The notes: generated by a model not told the origin, from the sequence alone. A stretch of 64,000 nucleotides of DNA from an uncultured delta proteobacterium (GCA_963704165.1 CAVPHD010000003.1:352001-416000); one strand, 5' to 3'; counted from the first letter of the stretch, positions 16,179-57,907 are shown. A program made the numbers and translations.

Positions 16179-16344
16179 GGGCCCCCTCCGGCTGGATTCT
16201 CGATCAGACTCCCGGTCAAGAAAATCACCGTCCGAGTCGCTCTCGTATGACGGCGGTCATGTCGCGGACTCCGTGACCGTCGACGAAGCTGGTCGATGGT
16301 CCGGCTCCGCCTGAGTCGGTCTGCCGGGCCGAGGAGGATTCAAC

Positions 16345-17066: not shown

Positions 17067-17256
17067 CCGCGGGCTCGAGCCCCCGACGGGCCACCCGCCC
17101 GCAGGCGCGGACCCTAAACTTTTCTCTGTACCTCTGTATGGCCCCTGCGATAATGTGGGCTTGGCGCCACGAGATACCGTTTGCTTGCACGTGGGCTGCG
17201 CACTACGCGCCCCTACTCGTGGCGATCGAATCGAATGGAGAGGGAGGGGAAGAATC

Positions 17257-18123
17257 ATGCTCGAGACTCGAGCCGAGTTCGAACGGACCACGCGCAAGGT
17301 CGCCACAATTGCCGCCTTGCTTGCAGCCATCACCTTCATCGGAGCGCCCGGCTTGGCGTTTGCCGCCAATCCCTGCGAAGTGACACCGACCGGTGGAACG
17401 GTGGAACTGCCGCCCGAGGGCTGTGAATACCTGAGCCCAGAGGAGGTGCATACGATCATCGCCGGGCTGCCGGCCGGAACGACGATCGTGCTCGCGCCGA
17501 TCCACCGCGACTTCCTCTGTCACGAGGGGGGCGCCGGCGTTCCGCCCGCTCAGTGCAGCGTCGTGGTTCCGCCGGGGTCCTGCGAAGCGCCCGGCGGCGC
17601 GCTGGGTGGCACCGTGGACTGCACGCCGTCCCAGGCCCAGTTTCAGCTGACCGGTACCGGCGAGCTCGCGGGATTCAATCGCGTGCTCTCGATTCCGCTC
17701 GAGATGGAAGTCCACGCCGCACCTCGAACCGTCGGCGCTCCGGTCCAGTCCTTCCCCACCGAGATGATGTCGCTGCAAGGAGAGATCTTCGGTGACCCCG
17801 ACTTCGATCTGCTCAGGATTCGGGCCGGTGGCGTCCACGGCATGCCGAGCCCGGGGCACACGACACTGACGCTGCTGCCGAACGGAAATTTCGCCGTCGA
17901 CAGCTTCTTCGACATCACCTACGAGATCGAGATGGTCGGTGCGCCGGGAGGCCCGCTGGCGGGCATGGCGGGCACGACGACCGGGACGCTGAAGATGGCG
18001 ACCGGCCTCTCGTCCGCGGTTCCCACCGTCCCCAAGCCCGGACTCGGGGTCGTCGGCCTGATTCTGCTCGCCGTCGGAGCGATGTTCATCCCGCGGCTTC
18101 GAAGGAAAATGGCCTCGACGTAG
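17257..18123 (+). CDS. Secreted beta-rich protein with SFFD motif and C-terminal sorting/membrane-anchor tail (paralog 1)
   Basis: Signal peptide ending AFA-ANP; 6 Cys; VDSFFDITY; tail VPTVPKPGLGVVGLILLAVGAMFIPRLRRK (motif, TM helix, basic cluster; IPTL/PEP-CTERM-like). Confidence 0.75.
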   Translation: MLETRAEFERTTRKVATIAALLAAITFIGAPGLAFAANPCEVTPTGGTVELPPEGCEYLSPEEVHTIIAGLPAGTTIVLAPIHRDFLCHEGGAGVPPAQCSVVVPPGSCEAPGGALGGTVDCTPSQAQFQLTGTGELAGFNRVLSIPLEMEVHAAPRTVGAPVQSFPTEMMSLQGEIFGDPDFDLLRIRAGGVHGMPSPGHTTLTLLPNGNFAVDSFFDITYEIEMVGAPGGPLAGMAGTTTGTLKMATGLSSAVPTVPKPGLGVVGLILLAVGAMFIPRLRRKMAST

Positions 18124-18135
18124 GTTTCAGGATCC

Positions 18136-18161
18136 TCTCCCCGGGCGATCGCCCGGGGAGA
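18136..18161. repeat. Perfect 26-bp palindrome between the tandem paralogs
   Basis: TCTCCCCGGGCGATCGCCCGGGGAGA equals its own reverse complement. Confidence 0.85.
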
Positions 18162-18213
18162 CCGGGTCCACCTCGGGCAACGTGACGCGACACCAGTGGG
18201 AGGAGAGGGCGTG

Positions 18214-19026
18214 ATGCTGAAGCTCGGAGTTTCGTGGATCTGCGCGGCGATCGTTCTCGTCGCATCGGGCCTGGCCAGCGCCGGCCCCTGTGATGTGACT
18301 CCGAGCGGAGGAACGGTGCAGCTGCCGCCGGCGGGCTGCGAATACCTGAGTCCGGACGAGGTGCACAAGATCATCGACGGGCTGCCGCCCGGCACGACGA
18401 TCGAGCTTGCGCCGATTCACAAGGACTTCATCTGTCGCGAAGGATCGGCCTCGGTGTGCAGCATTCCCCTTCCGCCGGGAACCTGCGAAGCGCCGGGCGG
18501 CACGCTCGGCGGCAACATCGACTGCAGCGAGTCGGTCGCCGAATTCCACCTCACCGGCACGGGCGCACTCGCCGGTTACAGCCGTGTCGTCGCGATTCCG
18601 CTCGTCATGGAAGTCAACACCGCTCCGCGTGCACCTGGCGCTCCGGTGCAGGACTTCGACACCGAGATGATCGCGTTGCAGGGCCAGATCGGCGGCGACC
18701 CGGATTTCGATCTGCTCAGGGTCACCGCCGGCACGGGCTTCGGCATGCCGAGCCCGGGACACACGACGCTGACTCTGCTGCCGGGCGGCAACTACGCGGT
18801 CGACAGCTTCTTCGACATCACCTACCGGATCGACTTCATCGGTGCGCCGGGCGGCGCGCTCGCCGGGATGGCCGGTTCGACGACCGGGACGCTCAAGATG
18901 GCGACCGGGCTCTCGTCCGCCGTCCCGGTCGTTCCCGCGCCGGGACTTGGCGTCGTCGGCCTGATCCTGCTGGCGGTCGGAGCGATGTTCATCCCGCGGC
19001 TCCGGCGGAGAATGGCAAGGGCGTAG
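18214..19026 (+). CDS. Secreted beta-rich protein with SFFD motif and C-terminal sorting tail (paralog 2, tandem duplicate)
   Basis: Collinear with 17257..18123 (roughly 70% identical by eye), same 6 Cys, tail VPVVPAPGLGVVGLILLAVGAMFIPRLRRR. Confidence 0.75.
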   Translation: MLKLGVSWICAAIVLVASGLASAGPCDVTPSGGTVQLPPAGCEYLSPDEVHKIIDGLPPGTTIELAPIHKDFICREGSASVCSIPLPPGTCEAPGGTLGGNIDCSESVAEFHLTGTGALAGYSRVVAIPLVMEVNTAPRAPGAPVQDFDTEMIALQGQIGGDPDFDLLRVTAGTGFGMPSPGHTTLTLLPGGNYAVDSFFDITYRIDFIGAPGGALAGMAGSTTGTLKMATGLSSAVPVVPAPGLGVVGLILLAVGAMFIPRLRRRMARA

Positions 19027-19064
19027 ATCGAGTAGGGGCCGAGTCGGGCCTCATCGAATTCGGG

Positions 19065-19103
19065 ACCCCGATCCTGCCCGCCAGGGTCGGGGTTCTTCGT
19101 TTC
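19065..19103 (+). terminator. Probable Rho-independent terminator after the tandem paralogs
   Basis: Stem ACCCCGATCCTG / CAGGGTCGGGGT (12 bp with one G-U pair), 5-nt loop, followed by TCTTCGTTT. Confidence 0.6.
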
Positions 19104-19229
19104 GCGCTCACGACATCGCCTCAAACTGATTTACTCGCACTTTCGATCGTGGGACACTTTCGGGACATCCCCAGCCGTATGACGGTGACTGGCGACGACG
19201 GCGGTCCTCCATGGCGTCGCTTCGCCGAA

Positions 19230-20228
19230 ATGATGGATTCGGTGTTGGATCAGCTGTCGTCCCTGATTCGGAGTCGCGCGCTCGGGATCGACTCGAGCGA
19301 GGTGGAGTTCGCGAAGCGCGGGTTCGTGCGCCGGGATCCGCTCGCGGTTTCGCGACTCGAGGGTGTCGCTCGGACCTTCGTCCTCGGCTATCGCCTGGCG
19401 CTCGCACAGCCGTCGCCCGATCTCCTCGCGCGGGAGCTCGACCGCGTGCCGTCGGAGCTCCGGGGATTCGCCTATGAAGGCGCGGGAATGGCGCTCGCGT
19501 TGCTCGACCGCCTGACGCCGTGGCGTCGCGATCGCCTTCACGCATTCCTCGCGGGTCCGGCGGATGCGCACGTCTACATGGTGCTGATCGGCGCCGGTTG
19601 GGCTTGGGCGCGACTCCGACGTCGCGTGGACGCGCTCCTGCGGCCGCTCGATCCGGTGCTCGGCTGGCTTGCCCTCGACGGCTACGGATTTCACGAGGGT
19701 TTCTTCCACACCGAACGAACCGTCGAGCGCCACGAACGGCCCGCGCGCCTGCGTGGCTACGCGCTGCGCGCCTTCGACGCCGGACTCGGCCGCTCCCTCT
19801 GGTTCGTCTGCTGCGCAGACCCGGACGCCGTCTCCGCTTGCATCGCGCGCTTCCCGTCCGAGCGCCACGGCGATCTGTGGAGCGGCATCGGTCTGGCCTG
19901 CTCGTACGCGGGTGGCGCGAATGCCGACGCGATCGATGCGCTGCTCGGGCTCGCGAGCGCTCACCGCGGGTCGCTCGCCCAGGGGGCGGCCTTCGCCGCC
20001 GAGGCGCGGCAGCGTGCGGGGATTCCGGCGGAACACACCCGATGCGCGGTCGAACGCATCACCCGCACGTCCGTCGAGCTCGCGGCCAAGATCTGTCACA
20101 GCGAGCTCTCGAAGGTCGAACGGCGCGCGCCGGACGCGAACGGCGACCCGAGGTTCGAAGAGTGGCGGCGCGGGATCCACGAGGCACTCGTGCGCGGCCT
20201 CCACGCTGACGAGGGAGCGCGAGCATGA
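19230..20228 (+). CDS. unbL: Enediyne biosynthesis protein E3 (DUF1702, UnbL/SgcE3-like); alternative start at 19179
   Basis: RGFAYEGAGM, GAGWAWARL, WLALDGYGFHEGFF, AFDAGLGRSLWFV, DLWSGIGLACSYAGG, LAQGAAFAA; canonical position before E4. Confidence 0.9.
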   Translation: MMDSVLDQLSSLIRSRALGIDSSEVEFAKRGFVRRDPLAVSRLEGVARTFVLGYRLALAQPSPDLLARELDRVPSELRGFAYEGAGMALALLDRLTPWRRDRLHAFLAGPADAHVYMVLIGAGWAWARLRRRVDALLRPLDPVLGWLALDGYGFHEGFFHTERTVERHERPARLRGYALRAFDAGLGRSLWFVCCADPDAVSACIARFPSERHGDLWSGIGLACSYAGGANADAIDALLGLASAHRGSLAQGAAFAAEARQRAGIPAEHTRCAVERITRTSVELAAKICHSELSKVERRAPDANGDPRFEEWRRGIHEALVRGLHADEGARA

Positions 20229-22234
20229 GGGACCAGCCGTCGCCTGCACGTCGCCACGCGGCCCGACTGGTGGCCGTCGCGGTGGTCGTCGCCATCTTCT
20301 CCATCGTCGGCCTGCCCGAGCTCGAGCCGGCCGAGCGCGCGGCGTTGGCATCGCGATTCCGCTTCACGCCCGTAAAGCTCGAGGAGTGGCCCGAGGGCCC
20401 GTACCAGACGCGGCGCGCGGTGAACCCGAGTCTCGAGCGCCACTCCGGCTGGATCTCGGCGGTGGGCGCGGCGGTCGCGCTCGCCGACCTCGACGGCGAC
20501 GGACTGAGCAACGACGTGTGTCACGTCGATCCGCGCACCGATCTCGTCACGTTGTCGCCGGTGCCGGGAGGCGAGCCTCGCTATCCGATCGTCGCGCTCT
20601 CGGTCGGCGGCCTGCCCTACGACCGCGCGACGATGGCGCCGATGGGCTGCGTGCCGGGCGACTTCAACGAGGACGGGCGCACGGACCTGCTCGTGTACTA
20701 CTGGGGCCGCGCGCCGATCGCGTTCCTGAGCCGCGCCGCACCCGGCGATCCGCCGAGCGCAACCGGCTACCTTCCGCTCGAGCTGACCCAGAGCGGCGAG
20801 CGCTGGTTCACCAACGCCGCCACGTTTGCCGACATCGACGGCGACGGTCACGCGGACCTGTTGATCGGAAACTACTTCCAGGATGGCGCGCGCATCCTCG
20901 ACGCGAACGCCACGGCGCCGGACTCGATGCAGCACTCGATGTCGCGCGCCTACAACGGGGGCAAGAACCGCGTCTTCCTGTGGGCCGCGAAGGACTCGGG
21001 CAATGCCCACGAGCCCCGCGTGGCCTACCGCGAGGTGAACGGCGTCTTCGACGAGATCTCACTCCACGCCTGGACGCTCGCGATCGGCGCGGCCGACCTC
21101 GACGGTGACCTGCTCCCCGAGCTCTACTACGCCAACGACTTCGGCCCGGATCGCCTGTACCGAAACGTCTCGGGCCGGGGACGTCCGCGCTTCGCGCTGG
21201 TCGAGGGAACGCGCGGGATCAACACGCCCCGCTCGCGTGTGCTCGGCCGGGACTCCTTCAAGGGGATGGGCGTCGATTTCGCCGACGTCAACGACGACGG
21301 CCGACTCGACTTCTTCGTCAGCAACATCTCCGACGAGTACGCACTGCTCGAGAGTCACTTCCTGTTCGTGAGTCACGGTGACTGGGGCGACGAGGCCGAC
21401 GGCGTCGCGCCGTACGAAGACGATGGCGATGCCCTCGGCGTCGCGCGGAGCAGCTGGGGCTGGGACACGCGCTTCGGCGATTTCGACAACGACGGCGTGC
21501 CCGAGGCGCTGCAGGCGACGGGATTCGCGAAGGGCGAGACCGACCGCTGGCCCGAACTGCAGGAGCTCGCGACCGCGAACGACGAGCTGCTCGCGATCGC
21601 CGGCACCTGGCCACGCTTTCAGGCCGGCGACGACCTCTCGGGCCACGCTCCGAATCCGTTCTACGTGCGCGCCGCCGACGGGCGCTTCCACGACGTGGCC
21701 GCGGAGCTCGGGATCGACCAGCCACAGGTCACGCGCGGCATCGCCACCGCCGACGTCGACGGCGACGGAGACCTCGACTTCGCGATCGCGAACCAGTGGG
21801 AGCCCTCGCTCTTCTACCGGAACGAGCGCGGCGAGGCGGGCTCGGGATTCCTCGGCCTGCACCTGGTGCATCCGGTCGCGGCCGGTGCCAAGGAGGTTCG
21901 GGTGCAACGGGGCCACCCGCACGGAGGCACGTCTCCAGCGATCGGCGCCTCGGCCACCGTGCGGCGCGCGGACGGTCGCGTGCTCGTCGGTCAGGTCGAT
22001 GGCGGAAACGGCCATTCCGGCGTGCGCAGTCCCGAGCTCCACTTCGGCCTCGGAGATGCGGGCCAACACCCAAGCGCCGTCGAGGTCCGCTATCGCGATC
22101 GCTTCGGACGGCCGAATTCGATCGAGCTCATGCTCGAGCCGGGCTGGCACACGGTGGTCTTGCCCGATGCGCCGCCTCCCACGTGGCTGGCCAGCACGTC
22201 GGCATCGGCGCCGCGCGCGGGAGAAACGCGATGA
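20225..22234 (+). CDS. unbV: Enediyne biosynthesis protein E4 (FG-GAP/VCBS repeats plus ASPIC/UnbV domain)
   Basis: WISAVGAAVALADLDGDG, MAPMGCVPGDFNEDG..LLVYYWGR, LGRDSFKGMG, WPELQELA, QVDGGNGHSG..ELHFGLG; ATGA overlap with E3. Confidence 0.93.
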   Translation: MRDQPSPARRHAARLVAVAVVVAIFSIVGLPELEPAERAALASRFRFTPVKLEEWPEGPYQTRRAVNPSLERHSGWISAVGAAVALADLDGDGLSNDVCHVDPRTDLVTLSPVPGGEPRYPIVALSVGGLPYDRATMAPMGCVPGDFNEDGRTDLLVYYWGRAPIAFLSRAAPGDPPSATGYLPLELTQSGERWFTNAATFADIDGDGHADLLIGNYFQDGARILDANATAPDSMQHSMSRAYNGGKNRVFLWAAKDSGNAHEPRVAYREVNGVFDEISLHAWTLAIGAADLDGDLLPELYYANDFGPDRLYRNVSGRGRPRFALVEGTRGINTPRSRVLGRDSFKGMGVDFADVNDDGRLDFFVSNISDEYALLESHFLFVSHGDWGDEADGVAPYEDDGDALGVARSSWGWDTRFGDFDNDGVPEALQATGFAKGETDRWPELQELATANDELLAIAGTWPRFQAGDDLSGHAPNPFYVRAADGRFHDVAAELGIDQPQVTRGIATADVDGDGDLDFAIANQWEPSLFYRNERGEAGSGFLGLHLVHPVAAGAKEVRVQRGHPHGGTSPAIGASATVRRADGRVLVGQVDGGNGHSGVRSPELHFGLGDAGQHPSAVEVRYRDRFGRPNSIELMLEPGWHTVVLPDAPPPTWLASTSASAPRAGETR

Positions 22235-23235
22235 GCTCGGTCCTCTCGGACACGCCGGGGTTTCATCCCGCGACCCGGCCGGAGCGACCCGCGCCGACGC
22301 CGCTCCGCGCGAGCGACATCGACTGGGCGCAGCAGATCCGACTCGGTGGACTGCGCCGCTTCGCGTTCGCGATCACGCTCTTGAACGTCGTCGGTCACCT
22401 CTACCTCGGCTTCGAGACGTCCTGGCTGCACCCGTTGGCTGCACTCGCCACCGGCTACACGCTCGAGCTCCTGCTCGAGACCATCGACGCGCGGGCCAAG
22501 GGACGCGTGGCGCGTTATCGCATCGGTGGTCTCACGGGGTTCGGTGATTTCCTGCTCTCGGCGCACATCTCGTCGCTCGCCGTGTCGATGCTCCTCTACC
22601 CCAACGAGCACCTCGCCCCGGTGATCTTCGCGACCTCCGTCGCGATCGGGTCGAAAGTGGCGCTGCAGGTCGAGGTGGGCGGGCGCCTGCGGCACTTCAT
22701 GAACCCGTCGAACTTCGGGATCGCCGCCACGCTCTGGTTCTTCCCGTGGGTCGGCATCGCGCCGCCCTACCAGTTCACCGAGAACATCTCGGGGCCGTGG
22801 GACTGGGCGTTTCCGCTGCTGATCATCTTCACCGGCAGCTTCATCAACACACGCTTCACGCGCCGACTCCCGCTTCTTCTCGCCTGGCTCGGCGGCTTCG
22901 CCGCACAGGCGCTGCTGCGGCACTGGCTCTTCGATTCCGCGCTGGTTCCGTCGCTGGCGCCGATGACCGGTCTCGCGTTCCTGCTCTTCACCTTCTACAT
23001 GGTGACCGATCCGCCGACGACGCCGAGCTCGACGCGAAACCAGATCTTCTTCGGGCTCGCGACCGCCGCGACCTACGGCGTGCTGATGGCCTGCCATCTC
23101 GTGTTCGGGCTCTTCTTCTCGCTCGTCATCGTCTGCTTCGCGCGCGGGAGCTGGCATTTCCTCGCGTCGCTGCCGCGCGCGGCTCGGGCGCAGAACGACG
23201 ACTCGGACGCGGTTGCGGGCCCGCGGTCCATCTGA
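22231..23235 (+). CDS. unbU: Enediyne biosynthesis protein E5 (UnbU-like membrane protein)
   Basis: LRRFAFAITLLNVVGH..LGFE, RHFMNPSNFGI, FPWVGIAPPYQFTE, FTFYMVTDPPTTP; ATGA overlap with E4. Confidence 0.92.
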   Translation: MSSVLSDTPGFHPATRPERPAPTPLRASDIDWAQQIRLGGLRRFAFAITLLNVVGHLYLGFETSWLHPLAALATGYTLELLLETIDARAKGRVARYRIGGLTGFGDFLLSAHISSLAVSMLLYPNEHLAPVIFATSVAIGSKVALQVEVGGRLRHFMNPSNFGIAATLWFFPWVGIAPPYQFTENISGPWDWAFPLLIIFTGSFINTRFTRRLPLLLAWLGGFAAQALLRHWLFDSALVPSLAPMTGLAFLLFTFYMVTDPPTTPSSTRNQIFFGLATAATYGVLMACHLVFGLFFSLVIVCFARGSWHFLASLPRAARAQNDDSDAVAGPRSI

Positions 23236-23238
23236 AGC

Positions 23239-26200
23239 ATGCGCGAGCCCATCGCCATCGTTGGGCTCGCCTGCTCTTATCCCGACGCGAACTCCCCCGC
23301 TGAGCTCTTCGAGAACGTGCTCGCGGGTCGCCGTGCGTTCCGGCGGATTCCAGAAGAGCGGCTCTCACTGGCCGACTATGGCTCGACGGACGCCGGCGAC
23401 GTCGACCGCACCTACGTCACGCAGGCCGCGACGATCGAGGGCTACGAGTTCGACCGGGTGCGCTTCAAGATCGTCGGCAGCACCTATCGATCGGCGGATC
23501 TGACCCACTGGCTCGCGCTCGACGTGGCCGACCGCGCACTCACCGACGCCGGCTTCGCAGACGGCGACGGACTTCCCCGGGAGCGAACCGGCGTGATCCT
23601 GGGCAACACGCTGACGGGGGAGTTCTCGCGCGCGCAGGCGATGCGGCTGCGCTGGCCGTACGTGGAGCGTGTGCTCTCGGACACCCTCGGCGACCTCCTG
23701 CCCGACGCGTCCGCGCGCGCAAGCTGGCTCGCCGAGCTCGAGTCCCGCTACAAGGCGCCCTTCGAGGCCTTTGGTGACGAGAGCCTGGCGGGCGGACTCG
23801 CAAACACGATCGCGGGCCGCATCTGCAACTTCTTCGATCTGAAAGGCGGCGGATTCACCGTCGATGGCGCGTGCTCCTCGTCGCTGCTCGCCGTCGCCAA
23901 CGCGTGCGCGGCGCTCGCCGCGCGCGATCTCGACGTGGCGATCACGGGCGGCGTCGATCTCAGCCTCGACCCGTTCGAGCTGGTCGGCTTCGCGCGTGCG
24001 GGCGCGCTCGCTCGCGACGAGATGCGCGTGTACGACCGCCGCGCACAGGGCTTCTGGCCGGGCGAAGGCTGCGGTCTCCTGGTGCTGATGCGCGAACCCG
24101 ACGCGATCGAGCGGGGCCTGCGCGTCTACGCGCGCATCCGCGGCTGGGGCATCGCATCCGACGGGGCCGGCGGCATCTCGCGTCCCGAAGCGGCGGGGCA
24201 AGTGCTCGCGCTGCGCCGCGCGTACGCTAGCGCCGGCTTCGGACCCGAGACGGTCGCCTGCTTCGAGGGCCACGGAACCGGAACGGAAATCGGCGATGCG
24301 ACCGAGCTCGAGGCCCTGACGCAGCTGCTTCGCGAGAACGGCGCGGGTCGCGACGCGCCGGCTTCGATCGGATCGATCAAGGCGAACATCGGACACACGA
24401 AGGCCGCGTCGGGTGCGGCCGGACTGATCAAGGCCACGCTCGCGCTTCACCGGCAGTTGCTGCCTCCGATGCCCGGCTGCGAATCGCCCCACGCGCTGGT
24501 CGGAAGCGGCGCGCTGCTTCGCGTGCAGACGCTGGCTTCGCCCTGGCCACAGGACCGGCCGCTGCGTGCAGCCGTCAGCTCGATGGGCTTTGGCGGCATC
24601 AACACCCACGTCGTGCTCGACTCGCAGGCGAGTCGCCGCCGCCCCGCGCTTTCGCGTCGCGAGCGCGCGCTCCAGACGACGAAGCAGGACACCGAGCTGT
24701 GTTTGTTCGCCGAGGACTCGGCGCCGCAGCTGCGAGCTCGGGTCCAGGCGCTGCTTCCGCTCTCGCGCCGCATCTCGCAGGCCGAGCTCTCCGACCTCGC
24801 CGCGAGCTTGGCCGCAGAGGTCGCCGCCCGGCCGCCGGGCCCCCGCGCGCGAGCGGCCGTCGTGGCCTCGCGACCCGACGAGCTCACGACGCAGCTCGAG
24901 CGTCTGGTCGCGGCGATCGATCGCGCGACACAGAACGGCGACGCGATCTCGATCGAGCCGGAGCGCGGGGTCTTCTTCGGCGCTCGATCCGGAGATCCCC
25001 ACATCGGCTTGCTCTTTCCCGGCCAGGGCGCGCCCGTGCATCCGGACCTCGGCGCCCTGGCGCCGTGGCTCGACGGCGATCCGCTCGGGTCGCTGCACGC
25101 CGCGGCCATCGCTCCCGCGCACGAGGCCGGGCTCTTCGCCGGCTCCACCCCGATCGAGCGCGGAGAGATCGTCGACACCTCCCTCGCGCAGCCGGCGATC
25201 GTCGCGGCCTCCGTCGCGAGCGCGCTCATGCTCGAAGCACTCGGGGTCGTGGCCGAGGTCGCGGTGGGGCACAGCCTCGGCGAGATCGCCGCGCTCGCGT
25301 GGAGCGGATCGCTAACGCCCGGCGCTTCGGTTCGGCTCGCCGCCTCGCGCGGGCGGATCATGGCGGAGCTCGGTCACGACGACGGCGCGATGGCGAGCCT
25401 GGCCGTCGATCCAGACACGGCGCAGCGTCTGATCGCGACCGAGCCCTGCGTCATCGCCGCCCGGAACGGTCCCATTCGTACGGTCATCGCCGGCGATACC
25501 GCGGCCGTCTCGCGCGTGATCGAACGCGCGGCCGCGCAGCGCATCGCGGCGACTCGCCTCGCCGTGTCACACGCCTTCCACTCGCCTCACGTCGCGGACT
25601 GCGCGCCGGCTCTCGCGAAGGCGCTCTCTTCCGTTCCGTTCGAGGCGCCGCAACGGCGCGTCGTCTCCACGCGCACGGGCCTGCCGCTCGGCACCGACGC
25701 CGACCTCCGACTGCACCTCGTCCGGCAGGTGACCGAGCCGGTTCTCTTCTCGGACGCGGTGACGCGAGCGGCCGTCGGCCTCGACCTGTGGATCGAGGCG
25801 GGGCCGGGGCGAATGCTCGGCGCGCTCGCTTCCGATCTCGGCGACACACCGGTGATCCCGCTCGACAGCGGCGGCCCGACGTTTCGGGGTCTGCTCGCGG
25901 CCGTCGGCGCCGCGTTCGCTCTCGGCGCTCCGGTCGACACCGCGCGGCTCTTCGCCCACCGCGTCACCAAGCCCTTCGATCCCGAGCGGCCGCTCTCGTT
26001 CTTCTCGAACCCGTGCTGTGTGGATCGTGATCCGTCGACCGTGCCGGACGCCGCGCCAGGCCGCGCGCTTCCGGATGCAAACGATCGCAGCGTCGGGCAG
26101 AGCACGCTCGACGTGCTGCGCGGGCTCGTCGCTTCTCGCTGCGAGCTTCCCGTTTCCGCGATCGGCCCCGACGATCGCTTCCTGAGCGACCTGCACCTGA

Positions 26201-29084
26201 CCTCGATCGCGGTGAGCGAGCTCGCGTCCCGGGCCGCTCGCGAGCTGTCGCGTCCGCCGCTCGTCGCGCCGAACGAGTTCGCCGACGCCACCGTGGCCGA
26301 GCTCGCGCGCGCGATCGAGTCCGAGGAGCGAGAGCTCGTGATGGGATCTTTCGTCGCGGGTGTGGACGCGTGGGTGCGCGGCTTCGAGGTCGTCTCGGTC
26401 GCGCGCGCGCGGCCGCGCGACTCGGCGATCGGCGGGCGACGCGAGGGCCCATGGTCGTGGCGGACCTTCCTCGAACCCGGCGACGAGCTCGGCGAGGCGA
26501 TCGCGCACGCGCTGCGGAGCTTTGCGGGCAGCGACGGCGTGCTCGTCCACCTGCCGACGACGCCGGCGTTTCTCGCCCAGCTTCCCCGGCTGCTCGAAGC
26601 CGCGCGAGCCGCGAACGAGAGCCTCGACGCGCGCCACTTCGTGCTCGTCCATCACGGCGACGCGAGCGCGACGATCGCCCGCACGCTCCACCAGGAGGCG
26701 CGCAACCTCGCCAGCCGGGTGATCGAGCTGCCCCCGTTCGACATCGCCGACGCTGCGGCGTGGGTGCTCGCCGAGGTGCGCGCGGGGTCCGCCTGGAGCG
26801 AGGCTCGCTACGACGGCGACGGAAACCGCTTCGAGCGGCGCTTGCGTCCCCTCCCGCTCGGAGCGGCCGCAGAGACCGGACTTCCCGTCGGCGCGAACGA
26901 CGTGCTGCTCGTGAGTGGCGGCGGCAAGGGCATCGCGGCCGAATGCGCTCTTGCGCTCGCGCGCGAGAGCGGCTGCGCGCTCGGGCTGATCGGTCGCTCG
27001 CGACCGGAGAGCGACGGACGCGCTGCGGGAGAACCTCGAGCGCTTCCGGGCCGCCGGCGTCCGCGTCGCCTACGCAGCCGGCCGACGTCTGCGATGCGCG
27101 CGAGGTCGGCATCGCGTTGCGCGAGATCGAGACGCGACTCGGGCCCGTGCGCGGACTCGTGCACGCAGCCGGGCTCAATCGACCCGACGTGCTCGCGCTT
27201 CTCGAGATCGGCGATTTCCGCGACACGCTCGCACCGAAGCTCGACGGGCTCGAGAACCTGCTCTCGCAGATCGACACGCGCCGGCTGCGCTGCCTGGTGG
27301 GATTCGGCTCGATCATCGCCGAGCTCGGGCTGCCCGGCGAAGCCCACTACGCGCTCGCAAACGAAATGCTGACGCGGCGAATCGAGGACTTCGCATCCGC
27401 CCACCCGCACACCCGCTGCCTCTCGCTCGCCTGGTCGATCTGGTCCGGGGTGGGAATGGGGGAGAGGCTCGGCCGGGTCGAAACCCTGTCGGCCCGGAAC
27501 ATCTCGGCGATCACGCCCGACCAAGGGGTCGCCTGGCTCGCGAAGCTGCTGCGTCGGAGCGATGCCCCGGTGCGGACGGTGGTGTCGGGTCGGTTCGGAC
27601 ACCCGCCGACGCTGACACACGTCGAGCAGACGCTTCCGGCGTTGCGCTTCCTCGAACGCGTTCGCGAACACGTTCCGCGCGTCGAGCTCGTCGCCGACGC
27701 GGAGCTCTCGCTCGAGTCCGATCCCTATCTCGCCGACCACGTCTACCGAGGAGAGTCGATCGTGCCGGGCGTGATCGGGCTCGAGGCCTTCGCGCAGATC
27801 GCCGGGGCGCTCGCGAATCACGCGCGGCTGCCGACGTTCGAGGACGTCCGCTTCGAGCAGCCGATCGTGCTACCGCCCGAGGGAAAGCGAACCGTGCGCG
27901 TCGCGGCGCTGGCGTCGGCGGAACCGGACGACGACCGGATCCAGCTTCGGCTCCGCACGGACGGCAACGCGTACCAGGTCCAGCACATCTCGGCCGAGGT
28001 CGGCTTCGTCGATCGAGTCGAGATGATTCCGACCGCGCTCGCCCCCGCGCCGAAGCACGACGCTCCCGTCGTCCTCGAAGACGGAGCGACGTTGTACGGC
28101 GACCTCTTCTTCCACCGCGGCCGGTTCGCGCGCGTGATTCGCTATCGCGCGCTCCACAGCGACGGCTGCGTGGCCGAGATCGCCGGCCGGGACGAGCCGT
28201 TCTTCGGCGCGTTCCAGCCGGGACGACTCTGCCTGGGGGATCCGGGCGCGCGCGACGCGGCGATCCACGCGATCCAGGCCTGTGTACCCGATCGGGATCT
28301 CCTGCCGATCGGCGTGCGGAGAATCGTCGCCGGCCGGCTCGAGGGGCACGCGCTTCTGCGACTGCGCGCGGTCGAGCGCGGCCGGCACGGGGGTCGCTAC
28401 GAGTACGACCTCGAGATCTCGACTCCGGAAGGTGAGGTGCTCGAACGCTGGGAAGGCCTCGCGCTGCAGGAGGTCGCGGGCGCCGCGCGTCGCGAGATCT
28501 GGCCGGCAGCGTTGCTCGCGCCGCGACTCGAGGAGTACGCGAAGGCGCTCTGGCCGGATGCGAGGGTGCGCGCAGCCTTCCTGCCCGACTCGGCGGCCGC
28601 GACGAGCGAGCTTGCGCTCCATGCAGCCCGCGGCGTGCCCGGTCGGCTCCGCCATCGGCTCGACGGACGGCCGGAGATCGATGGAGCGGGCGCGGTCAGC
28701 GTCAGTCACTCGGCCGGTCACACACTCGCGGTCTCCGCCGATGTCGATCTCGCCTGCGACGTCGAGGTCGTGAGCGAGCGCAGCGCGGAAACCTGGCGGG
28801 ACATGCTCGGCTTGGAAAGCCATGCGGCGGCACGCCAGCTCGCGGATCGAAGCGAGGAACCCTTCGACGTCAGCGCGACGCGACTCTGGGGGGCGAGCGA
28901 GTGCGTGCGCAAGCTCGGACTTCCGCGCGAAACACCGATCACGCTCTCCACACCGCTCGGGAATGGCGCGCTGCGCCTCCACGTCGGGCGCACGGAGATG
29001 CTCAGCTTCTCGGCTCGGCTGGCGGGCGCGGATGCGGCACGGATCTTCAGTCTTCTGGTTCGGAGCGGCGATGCGAGCGTTTGA
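23239..29084 (+). CDS. pksE: Enediyne-type iterative type I polyketide synthase PKSE (KS-AT-ACP-KR-DH-PPTase); two apparent +1 insertions at ~27016 and ~27080
   Basis: KS DGACSSS/EGHGTGT/GHTKAA; AT GHSLG, SHAFHS; ACP DLHLTSI; KR SGGGKGI, HYALAN; DH YLADH..VPG, RDAAIH; PPTase ACDVE, RLWGASECVRK. Removing two G gives a single 1947-aa ORF. Confidence 0.93.
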
Positions 29085-29496
29085 ATACCGGCACGTCGTC
29101 GGCTTCGAGGAGACCAACGTGGTCGGAAACGTCTACTACGCCAACCACGTGCGCTGGCAGGGGCGGGTCCGCGAGCTCTTCCTGCGCGAGCGCGCGCCCG
29201 AGATCCTCGACCTGATCCGAGAGGGCCTCGCGCTCGTCACGCTGCGCGTGAGCTGCGAGTACTACCGCGAGCTCGCCGCCTTCGACGAGATCTGCATCCG
29301 AATGCGATTGGCCGATCTATCGCCCCATCGCATGAGCCTGCTCTTCGAGTACTGGCGGGTCGGAGAGAGCGGCGAGGAGCTGGCCGCGCGCGGCGAGCAG
29401 GATCTCGCGTGCATGTGGCGGCGCAACGGCAAGACCGAGCCCGAGCCGTGGCCGGATTCCCTGCGCGAAGCGCTGCGACCCTATGCGGAGTCGTAG
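29071..29496 (+). CDS. Enediyne hot-dog-fold thioesterase E10 (SgcE10/CalE7/DynE7-like)
   Basis: FEYRHVVGFEETNVVGNVYYANHVRWQGRVRELFL; 141 aa; overlaps the PKSE stop. Confidence 0.93.
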   Translation: MRAFEYRHVVGFEETNVVGNVYYANHVRWQGRVRELFLRERAPEILDLIREGLALVTLRVSCEYYRELAAFDEICIRMRLADLSPHRMSLLFEYWRVGESGEELAARGEQDLACMWRRNGKTEPEPWPDSLREALRPYAES

Positions 29497-29505
29497 CCCG
29501 ACTCC

Positions 29506-32500
29506 ATGACGTGGATCTCGCAGAGGGCGCTCGACCGGCCGCGCGCGACGCTGATCGTCTGCGCCGTGCTCACGCTGGCGCTCGGCATCGGCGCGCTGCG
29601 GCTGGAGCTGCGCACCGACGGTCACGCACTCACGCCGGAGGGGCACCCGGTCGTGATGCGCGATGCCGAGGACCGCGTTCGCTTTCGCGACGCGCGCAAG
29701 GCGATCCTCGTGGCGCTCGCGCGCTCTCCGGAGCAGACGCTCGCCACGCCGCACGGCTTCCGCTTTCTCCGCGAGCTCCACGTTCGACTCGAGAGACTCG
29801 ACGTGCTCCGGTCGAGCGGGCTCGTCTCGCTCGCGGGCTTGCCCCGACTCACACGCGACGGCGGAACCGTCTCGGTCGGAACCTATCTCGACGCCATTCC
29901 AGAAGCGGACGACGGCTTCGAGGCGTGGCTCGCGACGCTCCGGTCACGCCCCCTCGTCGATGGCCTGCTGCTCGCGCGCGACGGACAGAGCGCCCTCTTC
30001 GTGCTGCCGCTCTCGGAAGCCACGAGCGCGGCGGAGGCGATCGGGAGCCTCGAGGCCTTCGCGGCCGGAGCTTCGACCGACGAATTCGAGCTGCTGCTCG
30101 GCGGCCCGCTCGTCGCCGAGACGAACCTGGGCGAGCAGGTGCTCTCCGACCTCGCGCTGCTGGTTCCCGGGATGGTGGTCGTGATCGCGGTCCTGCTGTT
30201 CTCGATGCTCGGCAGTCCCGGTGGCGTCCTGATTCCGCTGATCGAGACGGCGGTCGTGCTGATCGCGACGTTCGGCGCGATGGGCTGGGCCGGCGCACCA
30301 ATCGCGCTGGTCTCGACGATCCTCCCGGTCGTGCTGATGGCGACCTGCATCACCGACGAGGTGTACCTGCTCGAGCGCTTCGGCGCCCAGACCGGAACGG
30401 GCTCGCCGCGCGCGCGCGTCGAGGCGTCGCTGCGCGAGGTCGGGCGCCCGATCGTGCTGACGTCCCTCACCACCGCACTCGGCTTCCTCTCGTTCACCAG
30501 CGCGTCGATCGGACCGCTGCGCGATTTCGGGCTCTTCGCCACCTTCGGAATCCTGCTCGCGATGCTGCTGAGCTTCACGCTGATCCCCGCCTTGATCGTG
30601 CTGCTGCCCGTGCGGATCTTCGAGCCCGCCTCGTGGCGGACCGGAACGATCGGACAGGCTCGACTCGGGGCGTTCGCGGCCGGGCGCCCGGTCGTCTGCT
30701 TCGCGCTCGCGGTCGCGGCGCTCGCGCTCACGGTCCCGGGCATCCGCTCACTTCGAGTCAGTGATTCGTGGGTCGAGAACTTCGATCCCGAGTCCGAGCT
30801 GGTACGGGCCGATCGGCAAATCAATCGCTCGTTCTGGGGAAGCTATCGGCTCGACGTCGTGCTCGAGGCGGAGCCCGGCCGCTTCCACGACCCGTCGGGT
30901 GTCGCGCTCGTCGAGCGCGTCTGCGCGGTTTCCGAGAACGCGCCCCACGTCGGAGGCTGCGAGAGCCCGTACGTAGCCCTCGAGGAGCTGGCCCGAGTGA
31001 TGGATGCCGCAACACCTCTCTCCGCGCTGACGGCGGATCGGCTCTGGGATCTGTTCACGTTGTCGGAGCTTTCCGAGGGCCGCGCGCTCGACCCTTCGAT
31101 CAGCGCCTCGGCCGACGCCGCGCGCGTCCGGCTCTACGTGCGAAGCCCCGACTACGGGATGGCCCGCGAGCTGATGGACCATCTGGAAGGGGAGCTCGAG
31201 CCGATCCTCTCCGACACGGGCGTGCGCCATCACCTCGGCGGTGAGCTCGCCGTCACCTCGGCGCTCGTCGAGTCCATCGTCTACGACCAGCTGCGCTCGA
31301 TCGGCTGGGCGCTCTTCACCATCGCGCTGCTTCTGCTCGCATTCACCCGCCGCTTCCGGGCGTTGCTCGCGGTGGTTCCCGTCAGCGCGGCGAGCCTCGG
31401 GCTCTTCGGCGTCATGGGACTCGCCGGGATCACCCTTGGTGTCGCGACGAGCATGTTCGCGAGTCTGGCGGTCGGCGTCGGCGTCGATTTCGGCATTCAC
31501 TTCCTCCACCGCTATGACCGCGAGCGGCTCGCGGGGAGTGACTTCGCAGCCGCGATCCGAGCGACCTTCGACGTCACGGGCCGCGCGCTGCTCTGGAACG
31601 CGATCGTGCTGGTCGCCGGCTTCAGCGTGCTGATCGCATCGAGCTTGAAGCCGAATCACAGCCTCGGACTGCTTCTCGTCGGCGCCACCCTGGCGTGCTA
31701 TGGGGCGACGCTGCTCGGGCTTCCGCTGCTCTTGCGGCTCGGTGCCCGCGGGGCTGCGAAGAAGGCCGCGGGGCTCGTCGCGTGCCTGTGGATCGCCTTC
31801 GCACCGACTCGAGCAGCGAACGCCGCGGATCTGCCATGTGCCGGCCCCCCCGATCCCGAAGCCACCGCGTTGATGGCGCGTCTCGAGCAGACGCGCCGGG
31901 GTCAGGCGCGCATCGCGCGCATGCAGATCGAGACGATCTACCCGAAAGGCCACCGGCTCTCGGCGAGCTTCGCCGGCAAGATCGACGCGAAGACACTCTG
32001 GGCCGCGGCGAACGGCGACCCCGACGACACCTGGCTGCTCTTCGTCTTCTCGGGGCCGGGGCGCATGGCCGGCACGACGCTCTTGATCGAGGATCGCGCC
32101 GGCTCCGAGGAACGCGACGGAACGTGGTTGTACCTGCGAGCGTTCGACCGGTTCAGTCGGCTCGAGGGACGGATCGAGCGAACGGTCGTTCCGGGCTCGG
32201 CGCTCTCCTACGAGGACGCGAGGGAGTACATCGCGGGGGCGAAGTATTTCTTCCGTTCGGGCGGCCGAGCCGGGGAGAACGGTGTGCGCGTGATCGGCTG
32301 TCCGAGAACACCGGCGCTCGTGGATCGCCTCGGCTACGGCGCGCTCCTCATCGACGTCGATCCGGGGCGATGGCTCGTGCTGCGCATCGAGTACCTCGGC
32401 CCGGGCGGCGGTGCGCTGAAGCGCTATGAGTTGATCGAGGCCGGCTCGCTCGACGGACGTGAGATGCCACTCCGGGTGAAGCTCGTCCACGTCGTCGACG

Positions 32501-32703
32501 GGTTCGAGAACGACATCCGCTACGAGTACTGGCCGGTGCCGACGGGATTGCCTGCCGACCTGTTCCTGCCCGACATGACACGAGGATCGTTCCTGACTCG
32601 GATGCGGCGCGTGCTCCACGAACGCGGTCTCGGCGACCGCATCGACGCCGAGATCAGAGAAGCGGAAGTCAGCATTCGTGCGTACGACGAGCGCGTCCGG
32701 TAG
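29506..32703 (+). CDS. MMPL/RND-family lipid transporter fused to a C-terminal LolA-like (outer-membrane lipoprotein-sorting) domain
   Basis: Two MMPL halves (PIVLTSLTTALGFLSF; GVGVDFGIHFLHRY). C-terminal domain MAGTTLL..TWLYLRAFDRFSRL..PGSALSYED..ADLF. Starts 9 bp after the thioesterase stop. Confidence 0.87.
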   Translation: MTWISQRALDRPRATLIVCAVLTLALGIGALRLELRTDGHALTPEGHPVVMRDAEDRVRFRDARKAILVALARSPEQTLATPHGFRFLRELHVRLERLDVLRSSGLVSLAGLPRLTRDGGTVSVGTYLDAIPEADDGFEAWLATLRSRPLVDGLLLARDGQSALFVLPLSEATSAAEAIGSLEAFAAGASTDEFELLLGGPLVAETNLGEQVLSDLALLVPGMVVVIAVLLFSMLGSPGGVLIPLIETAVVLIATFGAMGWAGAPIALVSTILPVVLMATCITDEVYLLERFGAQTGTGSPRARVEASLREVGRPIVLTSLTTALGFLSFTSASIGPLRDFGLFATFGILLAMLLSFTLIPALIVLLPVRIFEPASWRTGTIGQARLGAFAAGRPVVCFALAVAALALTVPGIRSLRVSDSWVENFDPESELVRADRQINRSFWGSYRLDVVLEAEPGRFHDPSGVALVERVCAVSENAPHVGGCESPYVALEELARVMDAATPLSALTADRLWDLFTLSELSEGRALDPSISASADAARVRLYVRSPDYGMARELMDHLEGELEPILSDTGVRHHLGGELAVTSALVESIVYDQLRSIGWALFTIALLLLAFTRRFRALLAVVPVSAASLGLFGVMGLAGITLGVATSMFASLAVGVGVDFGIHFLHRYDRERLAGSDFAAAIRATFDVTGRALLWNAIVLVAGFSVLIASSLKPNHSLGLLLVGATLACYGATLLGLPLLLRLGARGAAKKAAGLVACLWIAFAPTRAANAADLPCAGPPDPEATALMARLEQTRRGQARIARMQIETIYPKGHRLSASFAGKIDAKTLWAAANGDPDDTWLLFVFSGPGRMAGTTLLIEDRAGSEERDGTWLYLRAFDRFSRLEGRIERTVVPGSALSYEDAREYIAGAKYFFRSGGRAGENGVRVIGCPRTPALVDRLGYGALLIDVDPGRWLVLRIEYLGPGGGALKRYELIEAGSLDGREMPLRVKLVHVVDGFENDIRYEYWPVPTGLPADLFLPDMTRGSFLTRMRRVLHERGLGDRIDAEIREAEVSIRAYDERVR

Positions 32704-33181
32704 AGCTTCGGCTCGCGAACGTGAAGACGCGCCGTCCGATCGGATCGCCCGGGTGAGAGCTCTCCTCGAAGTCACCGCCGGTATATTCGCGAATCACCGC
32801 GGACCAGAACGGAAGGCCCGCTCGGTTCGTCTCCAGGACGCGGACGACCCAGCATCCGGAGAGCTCGTCGAAGAGCGCGAGCGCGGCCCGTCGACCGACG
32901 CCCGACCGGCGCTGGCCGCGGAGGATGAAGAACTCGGCGACGTCGAGCGCTGCGGGGTCGTCGCTCGCGGGCGAGCCTCGCGTCACGAGCGCGAACCCCG
33001 CGACGTCGGCTCCGGACCGGATCAGAAACGCCCAGCGCGAGTTCGGCTCGGACCAGTACAGCGGCAGCCTCGTGTAGCCGAATCGTCCGTCGGTCCCGAT
33101 CTCAATCGGAACGATCTCGCTCATGTCGTGGATGTAGAGCTCGAGGAGATTCGCGAGCAGCGGCGCCGCGTCGACCGTCAC
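32669..33181 (-). CDS. GNAT family N-acetyltransferase (start uncertain)
   Basis: LANLLELYIHDMSE, GRFGY..LPLYW, VAEFFILRGQRRSGVG, NRAGLPFW. Confidence 0.82.
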   Translation of the reverse strand: MTVDAAPLLANLLELYIHDMSEIVPIEIGTDGRFGYTRLPLYWSEPNSRWAFLIRSGADVAGFALVTRGSPASDDPAALDVAEFFILRGQRRSGVGRRAALALFDELSGCWVVRVLETNRAGLPFWSAVIREYTGGDFEESSHPGDPIGRRVFTFASRSSTGRARRTHEC

Positions 33182-33231
33182 GCGTTCCAGCGCGATCGAC
33201 CGAGACCCTGCGGAGCTTTCGCGCGGAACGA

Positions 33232-34290
33232 CTACCCCTCCTCGAGAAGCTGCAAGAGATCGAGCTCGGTCTCGGCCATGCGTCGGCCGATCGCGGCCTG
33301 CTCGACGCTCGGGATCACGCCGGACAGGTAGGCGTTCATCTGCACGATCCAGACGACGCAGACCTTCGCGGCGGAGAGCGCCTCCCACCAACGCAGCGCT
33401 TTGCGGTCGAGCGAGCGGCCGCTCTCGACTTCGTAGGCGCGATAGAACGGCTCCCGCGGACCGACGCCGCCGACCGGCGCGCCCGGATTCCCGAAACGCC
33501 AGGTCTTCGTGCACATCCAGGCCAGGTCCTCGTGCGGATCGCCGACGTGGGCGAGCTCCCAGTCGAGCACCGCGCGCAGCCCCTCTTCCCCGACGACCAG
33601 GTTGCCCATCCGGTAGTCGCCGTGGACGAGCGTCCGCCCGCGCTCGCCCGCCGGGCTGCTCGGGACGTTCTGCTCGAGCCAGCGATACGCCCATTCACAG
33701 ACCGGTGTCGGGGACGGCGCACCGTCGATGCCGCGGCGGACCTGCGCGAGCTGTTCGAGCGCGCTCGAAACGCCCCCTGCTGGACGCGCGAGACGCTCGA
33801 GCCCGGGCGCCTCGGGACTCATGCGGTGGATGCGCGCGAGCGCTCGGCCGAGCTGATCGGGAAGGAGCTCGCGCGCACGGGCGAGCGCGGGGTCGCGCAG
33901 GATTCGCGTGCCGATCGTCTCGCCTTCGACCCGGTCCATGAAGTAGAACGGCCCGCCGAGCGGCTCGAGCTCGGCGCAGGGCCAGTAGACACGCGGCACC
34001 GGGACCTCGCAACGCAGCGCCTCTTCGAGCAGACGGAACTCGAGCCGGAAGCCGCCCTCGGTCGAGAGCCCGCGAGAAGCCGCCGCGCCCGCGGTCGGAT
34101 CGATCCGCAGCACGAGCGCGCGCGAGTCGACGTCGGAGGGCGTCTCGAGTTCAACGTCGAGGCTCCAGACCTGTCGCGACGAGCCGCCCGTCATTCGGCG
34201 CAGATTCTCCACGCGCGCCGGTCTGCCGGCCTGCGTGCGGATCCACGCCTCGATCCGCCGCACCCGCTCTTCGCGCTCGAGCTTCTCCAT
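33232..34290 (-). CDS. Phosphotransferase (APH/choline kinase) family protein
   Basis: GGSSRQVW, FYFMDRVEGE, LVHGDYRMGN, VLDWELAHVGDPHEDLAW. Confidence 0.9.
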   Translation of the reverse strand: MEKLEREERVRRIEAWIRTQAGRPARVENLRRMTGGSSRQVWSLDVELETPSDVDSRALVLRIDPTAGAAASRGLSTEGGFRLEFRLLEEALRCEVPVPRVYWPCAELEPLGGPFYFMDRVEGETIGTRILRDPALARARELLPDQLGRALARIHRMSPEAPGLERLARPAGGVSSALEQLAQVRRGIDGAPSPTPVCEWAYRWLEQNVPSSPAGERGRTLVHGDYRMGNLVVGEEGLRAVLDWELAHVGDPHEDLAWMCTKTWRFGNPGAPVGGVGPREPFYRAYEVESGRSLDRKALRWWEALSAAKVCVVWIVQMNAYLSGVIPSVEQAAIGRRMAETELDLLQLLEEG

Positions 34291-34520
34291 CGCCTCCCGG
34301 TCCTACCCGCCCGCCGTGAACGGCGGCGATCATATCAGCGAACCCGGGGGCAGACCCCGCCTGTTCCGGAGCGTCGTCTTCGGCAGCCGTCCGTACACCG
34401 TAGGGTGACGAGATCGATTCCCCGAGTCGAACCGGGCATCCGAGTGGCGTGCGACAACGCGAAACACCCTCGCGACCCGAGCTCGCGGTGTTCCCAGCTC
34501 ACGATCGACGCGGGAGCCGA

Positions 34521-34840
34521 CATGCACTCGTCGCCAACTCGGCGCACGCAGACGCGGATCTCGAGGATCGGGTTCGGACGGCCACCGGCTCGATCTTCGA
34601 CGCCGCCGTGCAGATCCGGAATCACGACTTCTACGGGCGCTCGATGGAGCACGGCGGCGGCGGCACGCCCGGGGACTCCCCCCCTGACGGTGATCTGCGA
34701 CGAGTTCGGAGCCCTTCGCGGGTTTCGCGACGTGTTCGTCAGCGCGGGCGACGCGGACTTCGGCTCGGGCTGGCTCCGGGGCACCTGGTCGGGGGAGGAC
34801 TTGCGCATCCACACGACCGCCGACGCCGCCCGCCCTCCGC
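34521..34840 (+). pseudogene. sodB: Degenerate internal fragment of an Fe/Mn superoxide dismutase gene
   Basis: LEDRVRTATGSIFDAAVQIRNHDFYGRSM..GGGTP / LTVICDEFG..FRDVF..DFGSGWL..LRIHTTADA is collinear with FeSOD (FNNAAQVWNHTFYW; NFGSGWTWL). Frameshift in the C-run at ~34680; no DVWEHAYY motif found. Confidence 0.72.
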
Positions 34841-35036
34841 GCCGAGCCAGCGAGGGGGCCCGGAGCGACGGTCGGAGGCGCGAAATCGCCTCCAAACCCG
34901 CCAGGACTGGTACGATGGCGAGAACCTGTAGACGGAGCGTCACCTACCGCAGTTGCCGGACCACTTCCTCCTGCGTGGAGAGCCTGCCGCGCGCTGGGCG
35001 GAAGACCCGACCGCAGGCTCATGGACGATCGTGACG

Positions 35037-57897: not shown

Positions 57898-57907
57898 CCC
57901 GAGTCGG

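Follow-up and report, generated by a model that had tools for sequence, protein, structure and literature searches.

In this work we analysed the window CAVPHD010000003.1:352001-416000, a stretch of 64,000 nucleotides from the genome of an uncultured bacterium (G000) in which positions are counted from the first letter, and in which a compact block of genes joins a polyketide synthase (PKS) cassette of the enediyne type to a putative exporter. The full block starts at position 17257 and consists of two genes for secreted proteins, the five cassette genes E3-E4-E5-PKSE-TE (TE being the thioesterase, or E10) and a gene for an MMPL transporter fused to a LolA-like domain. The features are as follows.

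17257..18123, plus strand: U1, a secreted protein of 288 residues (match to the U-family hidden Markov model; no Pfam match)
18130..18169, plus strand: G+C-rich hairpin 3' of U1, a possible terminator (-35.2 kcal/mol; not called by the terminator scan)
18214..19026, plus strand: U2, a secreted protein of 270 residues, predicted by AlphaFold2 to form an eight-stranded beta-barrel, with a sorting-like tail
19062..19096, plus strand: hairpin of 15 pairs with a T-rich run 3' of it, in the gap from U2 to E3, a possible terminator (-29.8 kcal/mol; not called by the terminator scan)
19230..20228, plus strand: E3 (DUF1702; PF08012, 356 bits, E 2e-106; 42% identity to SgcE3)
20225..22234, plus strand: E4 (FG-GAP repeats and ASPIC/UnbV, Pfam UnbV_ASPIC; 43% identity to SgcE4)
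22231..23235, plus strand: E5, a membrane protein weakly like NQR2/RnfD (47% identity to SgcE5)
23239..29084, plus strand: PKSE, KS-AT-ACP-KR-DH-PPTase (Pfam and motifs; pieces with 48% and 38% identity to SgcE)
29071..29496, plus strand: E10 thioesterase, TE (4HBT_2; 54% identity to SgcE10)
29506..32703, plus strand: MMPL/HAE3-type RND transporter with a LolA-like domain (Pfam MMPL in two stretches, and LolA_like)

A preliminary description of this locus recognised six genes, from E3 to the fusion, and missed the two upstream genes for secreted barrels. It placed E3-E4-E5-PKSE-E10 in the canonical order with ATGA overlaps or small gaps, and the MMPL-LolA fusion 9 bp after the thioesterase stop codon. 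The coordinates bear this out in order, strand and spacing, with ATGA overlaps at E3/E4 and E4/E5, a gap of 3 bp between E5 and PKSE, an overlap of 14 nt between PKSE and TE and the 9-bp gap before the fusion, both parts of which are recognised by Pfam. Judged by gene content, the cassette is a member of the minimal enediyne PKS cassette family, for which a five-gene definition has been stated (PMC10760148, PMC11350584). Aligned with the C-1027 cassette on plasmid SGLP1 of Streptomyces globisporus (L115), all five genes are full length, at the identities listed above, and the order E3-E4-E5-E, the domain order of PKSE and its catalytic motifs are the same. Pfam recognises the KS, AT, ACP, KR and DH domains of PKSE, and the catalytic motifs are all present (KS 23863, 24265 and 24385; AT 25267 and 25570; ACP 26188; KR 26914 and 27348; DH 27729 and 28254; PPTase 28698-28913); the PPTase, which has no Pfam match, is assigned from its motifs and from the 38% alignment to the C-terminus of SgcE. 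The best PDB matches of TE are enediyne thioesterases, namely 4i4j (an ACP-polyene thioesterase, E 3e-46), CalE7 and DynE7, and the NQR2/RnfD score of E5 (23.8 bits) lies under the Pfam cut-off of 27.7. Hydropathy analysis gave no hydrophobic segment in E3, a membrane protein for E5 and a single N-terminal segment (residues 12-30) in E4, which is for this reason likely to be anchored and to face the periplasm. The hairpin and T-rich run between U2 and E3 suggest that the U genes may be transcribed apart from the cassette; an Rfam scan of 16000-35000 and a sigma-70 promoter scan gave no match.

The six PKSE domain motifs claimed in the preliminary description are all present, but the gene is not a single open reading frame (ORF): two frame breaks fall close together in the KR region, inside about 60 bp (around 27015-27080), and it has two extra bases relative to its orthologue in the congener G007. 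The G007 gene in turn carries a 13-bp deletion (L004:5155-5175), which removes exactly the codon of the KS active-site cysteine and shifts the frame, the rest of that block being intact. We consider the breaks in the window to be probably assembly errors, because the host assembly is prone to indels (six frame changes per 12,638 aligned residues, in four of 24 genes, predicting about 0.9 frame change per PKSE-sized gene) and because the BamA gene is likewise split. Two other genes of the window, at 14342-16178 (flavin monooxygenase-like) and 55443-58504 (PEP synthase), are also in pieces, consistent with assembly indels.

In the fusion protein, the transporter extends from residue 1 to about 745 and is followed by a signal-like segment (about 751-775) and then by a LolA-like domain of the TP_0789 type (PF17131, 49.6 bits against a cut-off of 30), whose neighbours in the Atlas are TP_0789-like. 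The transporter has two MMPL repeats, 11 hydrophobic segments above threshold, an HAE3 match of 141 bits, which is below the cut-off, and acidic residues at positions 284 and 661 in TM4- and TM10-like transmembrane (TM) motifs, where MMPL-type transporters carry the acidic residues of their proton relay. The lipid exporters MmpL3 and HpnN, together with MmpL4, are distant sequence matches. Six genomes have the LolA-like domain fused in frame, one copy being cut by a contig end; outside the window the fusion occurs in G007, G290, G223, L017 (acidobacterial) and L033 (Deferrimicrobium). A metagenome scan with the fusion as query gave one locus (L114), which shows the same identities and the same deletion as G007 and was not counted as independent.

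The reading in the preliminary description depended on the MMPL gene being conserved beside homologous cassettes. A TE scan of species genomes, with query patterns biased such that none of the hits is actinobacterial, gave 65 loci (44 Acidobacteriota, seven Pseudomonadota, five Gemmatimonadota and nine others), and an MMPL gene lies 3' of TE in 26 of these, or in 23 of the 51 with at least 3.5 kb of downstream sequence. These loci are not independent, because 25 of the 26 are acidobacterial; their layout is the cassette, then an AraC regulator (39% identity to that of C-1027) and then a convergent MMPL gene. Wider reading around cassettes brought in further MMPLs, from Eisenbacteria, a planctomycete and L043. 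In a quick mixture tree, the cassette-adjacent MMPLs of this genus, Deferrimicrobium, Acidobacteriota, Eisenbacteria and the planctomycete form one clade [Shimodaira–Hasegawa-like approximate likelihood ratio test (SH-aLRT) 92-96], which excludes both the class's generic MMPLs and that of C-1027 (SH-aLRT 96 and 92). In a sample of 201 genomes of one acidobacterial family, E3 was present in 22 and this MMPL in six, in every case within about 20 kb of E3 and at loci already in the TE scan. Within that family, the MMPL therefore implies a cassette and the cassette does not imply the MMPL, which is missing from the other 16 cassette genomes.

The two upstream proteins, U1 and U2, are paralogues (74% identity over 257 residues). 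U1 has a signal peptide, one barrel domain and a hydrophobic-plus-basic C-terminal tail of PEP-CTERM-like character, with hydropathy segments at 18-36 and 263-281; the C-terminal TM segment and basic tail are present in both proteins and exosortases are present in the host, but neither protein matches the Pfam PEP-CTERM family. The AlphaFold2 model of U2 is an eight-stranded barrel [predicted local distance difference test (pLDDT) 89, predicted template modelling score (pTM) 0.83], the strands of which alternate hydrophobic and polar faces. Its fold matches are PagL [Z 9.1, root mean square deviation (rmsd) 4.2, 139 residues], OmpW (8.8) and bradavidin (7.8), and against DynF it gives Z 7.6 (rmsd 3.2, 128 residues). 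A Foldseek search with U returned nothing at E<=0.001, and an Atlas search with U2 gave only leads below 0.9, while 936 homologues of U2 were found at E<=0.001. The U barrels are presumably soluble, to judge from their tails, tandem repeats and fused domains. U occurs in six of 151 genomes of the class. In both of the other cassette genomes that have it, a copy lies beside the cassette and the MMPL: in Eisenbacteria, U is directly upstream of E3 with the MMPL divergent, and in the planctomycete E4-E5-MMPL-barrel form one run and E3-PKSE-TE a run in the opposite direction.

A second secreted family, V, is also predicted to be an eight-stranded barrel (pLDDT 81); its model matches NspA (Z 9.0) and, as its best soluble match, DynF (Z 8.0, rmsd 3.1, 132 residues aligned, 17% identity). 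The V protein of L169 does match Pfam PEP-CTERM, and in a planctomycete protein V is fused to U. Of 35 upstream stretches requested, 29 were used (three proved non-existent, two were other contigs, L168 and L172, and one was the planctomycete cassette itself), and V stands upstream of E3 in 17 of them, Competibacteraceae and Methylobacter among them; in several loci it immediately precedes E3 in the same orientation, and in L058 its gene is placed between those for PKSE and TE. Of the 201 genomes of the family sample, 13 have V, 12 of them with E3 and 11 within 15 kb of it, so that V is a more frequent partner of the cassette than the MMPL (12 against six of 22). A V subfamily of about 252 residues with no sorting tail (P0121-P0215) was seen in Longimicrobium, Rhizobium, Mesorhizobium and Sphingomonas, the gene context having been read for L058. 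At acidobacterial loci of the MMPL type (L144, L146-L149, L153, L154, L156, L158 and L166), the genes upstream of V are conserved and encode a subtilase, an uncharacterised protein of 650-760 residues and a CHAT-TPR protease.

The host genome (3.87 Mb in 12 contigs, 68% G+C, 84% complete) has LpxC and BamA above the cut-off, and the host is therefore diderm and non-actinobacterial, as previously proposed. The named close homologues of U2 are labelled Deltaproteobacteria, and a Myxococcota-type placement of the host may be inferred. An actinobacterial or chimeric origin of the contig was rejected in view of LpxC and BamA, by flanks that match five congeners on both sides at 75-86% DNA identity, and by a composition ordinary for the genome, the tetranucleotide distance of the block falling at the 72nd percentile of 16-kb windows. 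G007 has the block too, with one U gene, the cassette and the fusion, bounded in the same way; the DNA identity is 76-80%, and the genes around it are different. The gene convergent to the MMPL gene and the flanking catabolic genes are unlinked to the block in G007, and we rejected them as parts of it for this reason. Within the genus, E3, U and a close MMPL each occur in the same two of 12 genomes; E3 is present in two of 41 relatives and in six of 401 genomes of the phylum, G000 counted.

Orthologues of the E2, DUF5987, TIGR03084, AhpD/CMD, P450 and GMC genes of the C-1027 cluster do not adjoin the block. Among 23 C-1027 neighbour proteins, 11 had no match in the 84% complete host genome and the remainder match at 26-48% away from the block, with E2 matching only E3 and the P450 and GMC proteins giving 28-36% matches on other contigs; DUF5987, TIGR03084, AhpD/CMD and a second DUF1702 homologue were not found in the same genome. 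The 31 other ORFs scanned in the window are general catabolic and housekeeping genes and include no P450, epoxidase, glycosyltransferase or resistance gene. On what we take to be the correct mapping of E2, E7, E8, E9, E11, M and J onto the C-1027 annotation, the block is, by those genes, not a nine-membered enediyne cluster; the seven are the further genes conserved in nine-membered clusters (PMC9682884). Pfam analysis of the window gave no tailoring, sugar, trisulfide or anthraquinone genes of the ten-membered or anthraquinone-fused classes, the queries having included no calicheamicin or dynemicin proteins. Nor does the window contain a resistance-type gene of the glyoxalase or AHSA1/START kind, such as is present at other loci; self-resistance in enediyne clusters is of the apoprotein, CalC/CalU16 or TnmS type, and U1 and U2 could have a role of this sort. 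In the KS-AT and E4 trees, built without the long rows L116 and L072, the window falls outside the four actinobacterial sequences (100% branch) and stands with G007 on a long branch with no stable sister. No U or V match was found in the four actinobacterial loci read, each of which covers part of a cluster.

We give roughly an even chance to the view that the block makes a linear C15 polyene or polyyne, which is exported and held by the barrels outside the cytoplasm and is not cyclised to an enediyne. Together with iodide, E3, E4 and E5 are said, in work by Gui from 2024, to turn the heptaene into iodoheptaene, diiodotetrayne and pentaynes, the diiodotetrayne reportedly being a common enediyne intermediate. 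PKSE and TE of all enediyne classes release pentadecaheptaene, as shown for actinobacterial homologues (PMC9992847); the roles of E3, E4 and E5 have been called uncertain, and iodide is essential for anthraquinone-fused enediynes (PMC11069151). In the pathway proposed here, PKSE, TE and E3 would act in the cytoplasm and E4 and E5 at the periplasmic face, a division suggested by the lack of a hydrophobic segment in E3, the N-terminal segment of E4 and the membrane character of E5; the split planctomycete operon matches the same two sets. The proton-driven MMPL would lift the hydrocarbon out of the inner membrane, and the fused LolA-like domain, placed after its signal-like segment, would ferry it onwards. 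U1 and U2, sorted by way of their exosortase-type tails, would then bind the air- and light-sensitive product, much as DynF, an eight-stranded antiparallel barrel, binds palmitate (a C16 chain), its binding of heptaene being not confirmed (PMC8725005). The product might serve as a pigment, an antioxidant or a contact antimicrobial. Of the preliminary proposal that the cassette product is sent to the envelope, the link to an exporter is conserved, but an enediyne core is an unlikely cargo for the MMPL because the downstream core genes were not found; delivery to the outer membrane or surface is, in our account too, an inference.

In favour of the linear-product view we count the homology of the cassette to that of C-1027, the conserved block in G007 and the low pairwise dN/dS of the block (0.15-0.39 in all nine stretches tested), together with the joint presence of the MMPL, the cassette and a barrel (U or V) in this genus and in Eisenbacteria, Planctomycetota and Acidobacteriota. 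A number of observations weigh on the other side. The PKSE is broken as assembled in both copies of the genus, the host genome is only 84% complete, and a hairpin stands between the U genes and E3. The MMPL is missing from the 16 family cassettes mentioned above, four of the 14 rows of its clade have no adjoining cassette (three of these four MMPLs follow a U or V gene), and the two proteins most similar to the fusion (57% and 54%) are encoded at loci with no adjoining cassette, in one case just after a gene for the U barrel. Of 50 other cassette genomes only two were found to have U, five further cassettes have V and no MMPL in the span read, and U or V occurs with neither partner in the fetched span of at least seven genomes. 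The fold Z-scores of U and V (7.6-9.1) are near the background for small barrels, with outer-membrane barrels as the top matches; profile comparison of U with V gave no similarity, and neither profile retrieved a DynF chain at E<=10.

Several other readings have to be set against these data. The barrels might be biosynthetic in the manner of DynF, with the MMPL feeding an intermediate to periplasmic E4 and E5 and to the barrels and with a product that goes beyond the linear polyyne, and the tie of V to the cassette, closer than that of the MMPL, its placing in L058 and, at other loci, immediately 5' of E3 in the same orientation, and the planctomycete E4-E5-MMPL-barrel run all suit this idea, as do DynF being the best soluble fold match of V and the early essential role of the DynF orthologue Sgd15 in its enediyne pathway (PMC8725005). 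We nevertheless think it unlikely, since U and V have no sequence link to DynF and since U occurs in tandem repeats, with surface-type tails (PEP-CTERM-like and FlgD-Ig) and in cassette-free genomes, which is easier to reconcile with a binding module than with an enzyme of the pathway. The MMPL-LolA protein and a barrel might instead form a transport pair of their own for a different lipid, with the cassette inserted between them and the link to export partly historical; this appears quite unlikely to us. G290, where a U gene is immediately followed by the fusion of 57% identity, no cassette is present and there is a second, V-MMPL pair, and G022, with another V-MMPL pair, speak for such a pair, as does the discordance of the MMPL and PKSE trees (the MMPL of the window groups with Deferrimicrobium and its PKSE does not). 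The three-way association, however, turns up in four lineages, in varying gene order, and all six MMPLs of the family sample flank a cassette, while loss of the cassette would account for the orphans equally well and the trees cannot separate gain from loss.

Nine-membered enediynes are stabilised by apoproteins, and the block could in principle make a true enediyne, with finishing genes that are dispersed or unrecognised, the barrels as apoprotein and the MMPL as an efflux pump as in C-1027. Although the five-gene cassette is complete, the C-1027 cluster has an MMPL and 16% of the host genome is missing, we hold this to be very unlikely: DUF5987, TIGR03084, AhpD/CMD and the second DUF1702 homologue were not found in the genome assembled, the block boundaries in two genomes enclose no further genes, and the acidobacterial cassettes that do have P450, SnoaL, radical-SAM and glyoxalase genes are mostly without V and MMPL. 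The faintest prospect, in our estimate, is that the block is decaying in this genus, a relic with real PKSE breaks and no product; the two frame breaks, the loss of the KS cysteine in G007 and the patchy presence in the genus would be expected of one, but the indel-prone assembly (BamA included) accounts for about one such change per gene of this size, the remaining genes are intact with dN/dS well under 1, and decay here would leave the intact orthologues of other phyla untouched. Returning to the linear product, a wider version of this view, which we put forward tentatively and with some doubt, is that in several diderm phyla an envelope pathway is built around the cassette: PKSE, TE and E3 would make a C15 polyene, E4 and E5, facing the periplasm, would convert it to an iodinated polyyne, and a dedicated MMPL(-LolA) would export this product, to be shown on the surface as a chromoprotein by DynF-like barrels of two unrelated families. 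Such a pathway would be a non-antibiotic and possibly ancestral base from which enediyne cyclisation in actinomycetes arose.

Part of this picture is known already. Enediyne-type KSs have been published from Deltaproteobacteria, Cyanobacteria, Bacteroidetes, Chloroflexi and others, with no compound known (PMC10308959, Singh et al. 2023); the available text of that paper concerns KS domains and describes no exporter or secreted barrel partners. An MMPL is found in the C-1027 cluster, although it belongs to another subfamily, with 25% identity over 275 residues, a position outside the clade and no LolA-like domain. Both precedents weaken the preliminary interpretation. By description, the genes for aryl-polyene export, which we take to be those named ApeM and ApeL, similarly place an MMPL transporter and a LolA-fold carrier beside a polyene pathway, but here the synthase is a type I iterative PKSE and not a type II PKS, and the carrier is fused to the pump and is of the PF17131/TP_0789 type. 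U and V resemble DynF (PDB 6UBL) and Sgd15 in being predicted eight-stranded barrels associated with an enediyne-type cassette, and differ in having no detectable sequence homology to them and in carrying a signal peptide along with either a sorting tail or additional domains. A dedicated MMPL clade with a LolA fusion, tied to secreted barrel families, was not found in the literature searched, which did not extend to subscription journals and supplements.

The product of the five-gene cassette alone and the place in which E4 and E5 work are central questions in enediyne biosynthesis, and the block offers a cassette that stands alone, with finishing genes not recognised around it, and that is compact enough for expression in Gram-negative hosts. 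Its partners are one particular clade of exporters and two families of secreted barrels not described before, which opens product, location and carrier to direct test. It is also a warning for genome mining, in that many non-actinobacterial 'enediyne' clusters probably make no enediynes; MMPL and barrel genes, as opposed to tailoring genes, are suggested as the marker that separates the two kinds. Several acidobacterial cassettes (L010, L018, L027, L031, L045 and L048) carry P450, SnoaL, B12 radical-SAM, methyltransferase, glyoxalase and DUF899 genes and are better candidates for real non-actinobacterial enediyne producers; V was absent upstream in the six P450/SnoaL-type acidobacterial cassettes read, two of them over only 2-3 kb.

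Some observations were made in passing. On pSymA, the cultured alphaproteobacterium Sinorhizobium meliloti T073 has all five cassette genes in a divergent version (L116), and the 31.7 kb read there gave no match to U, V or the MMPL. In Deferrimicrobium (L112:1-5102), E4-E5 is duplicated in tandem before PKSE, and an acidobacterial cassette with an MMPL-LolA fusion has two di-haem (DHOR) genes between E3 and E4 (L150:1256-5082). The window also encodes a secreted C-type-lectin protein with a weak PEP-CTERM match (34953-35762) and a secreted protein of 790 residues with a weak M35 peptidase match (7148-9520). The host has two rpoB-rpoC loci, about 71% identical (G000:C5:300885-308814 and G000:C9:121758-129896), of which the C5 copy is frameshifted and lies at a contig end; contamination or a true second RNA polymerase would explain the pair. 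Finally, an ABC transporter of the NMT1/TauABC type adjoins the cassette in L052, L054, L060, L062, L071, L072 and L155 (upstream of L024), from Myxococcota, Rhodocyclaceae, Kapabacteria and Acidobacteriota, with a TauE gene in Calothrix (L050), and is a candidate importer of iodide or another anion for the cassette.

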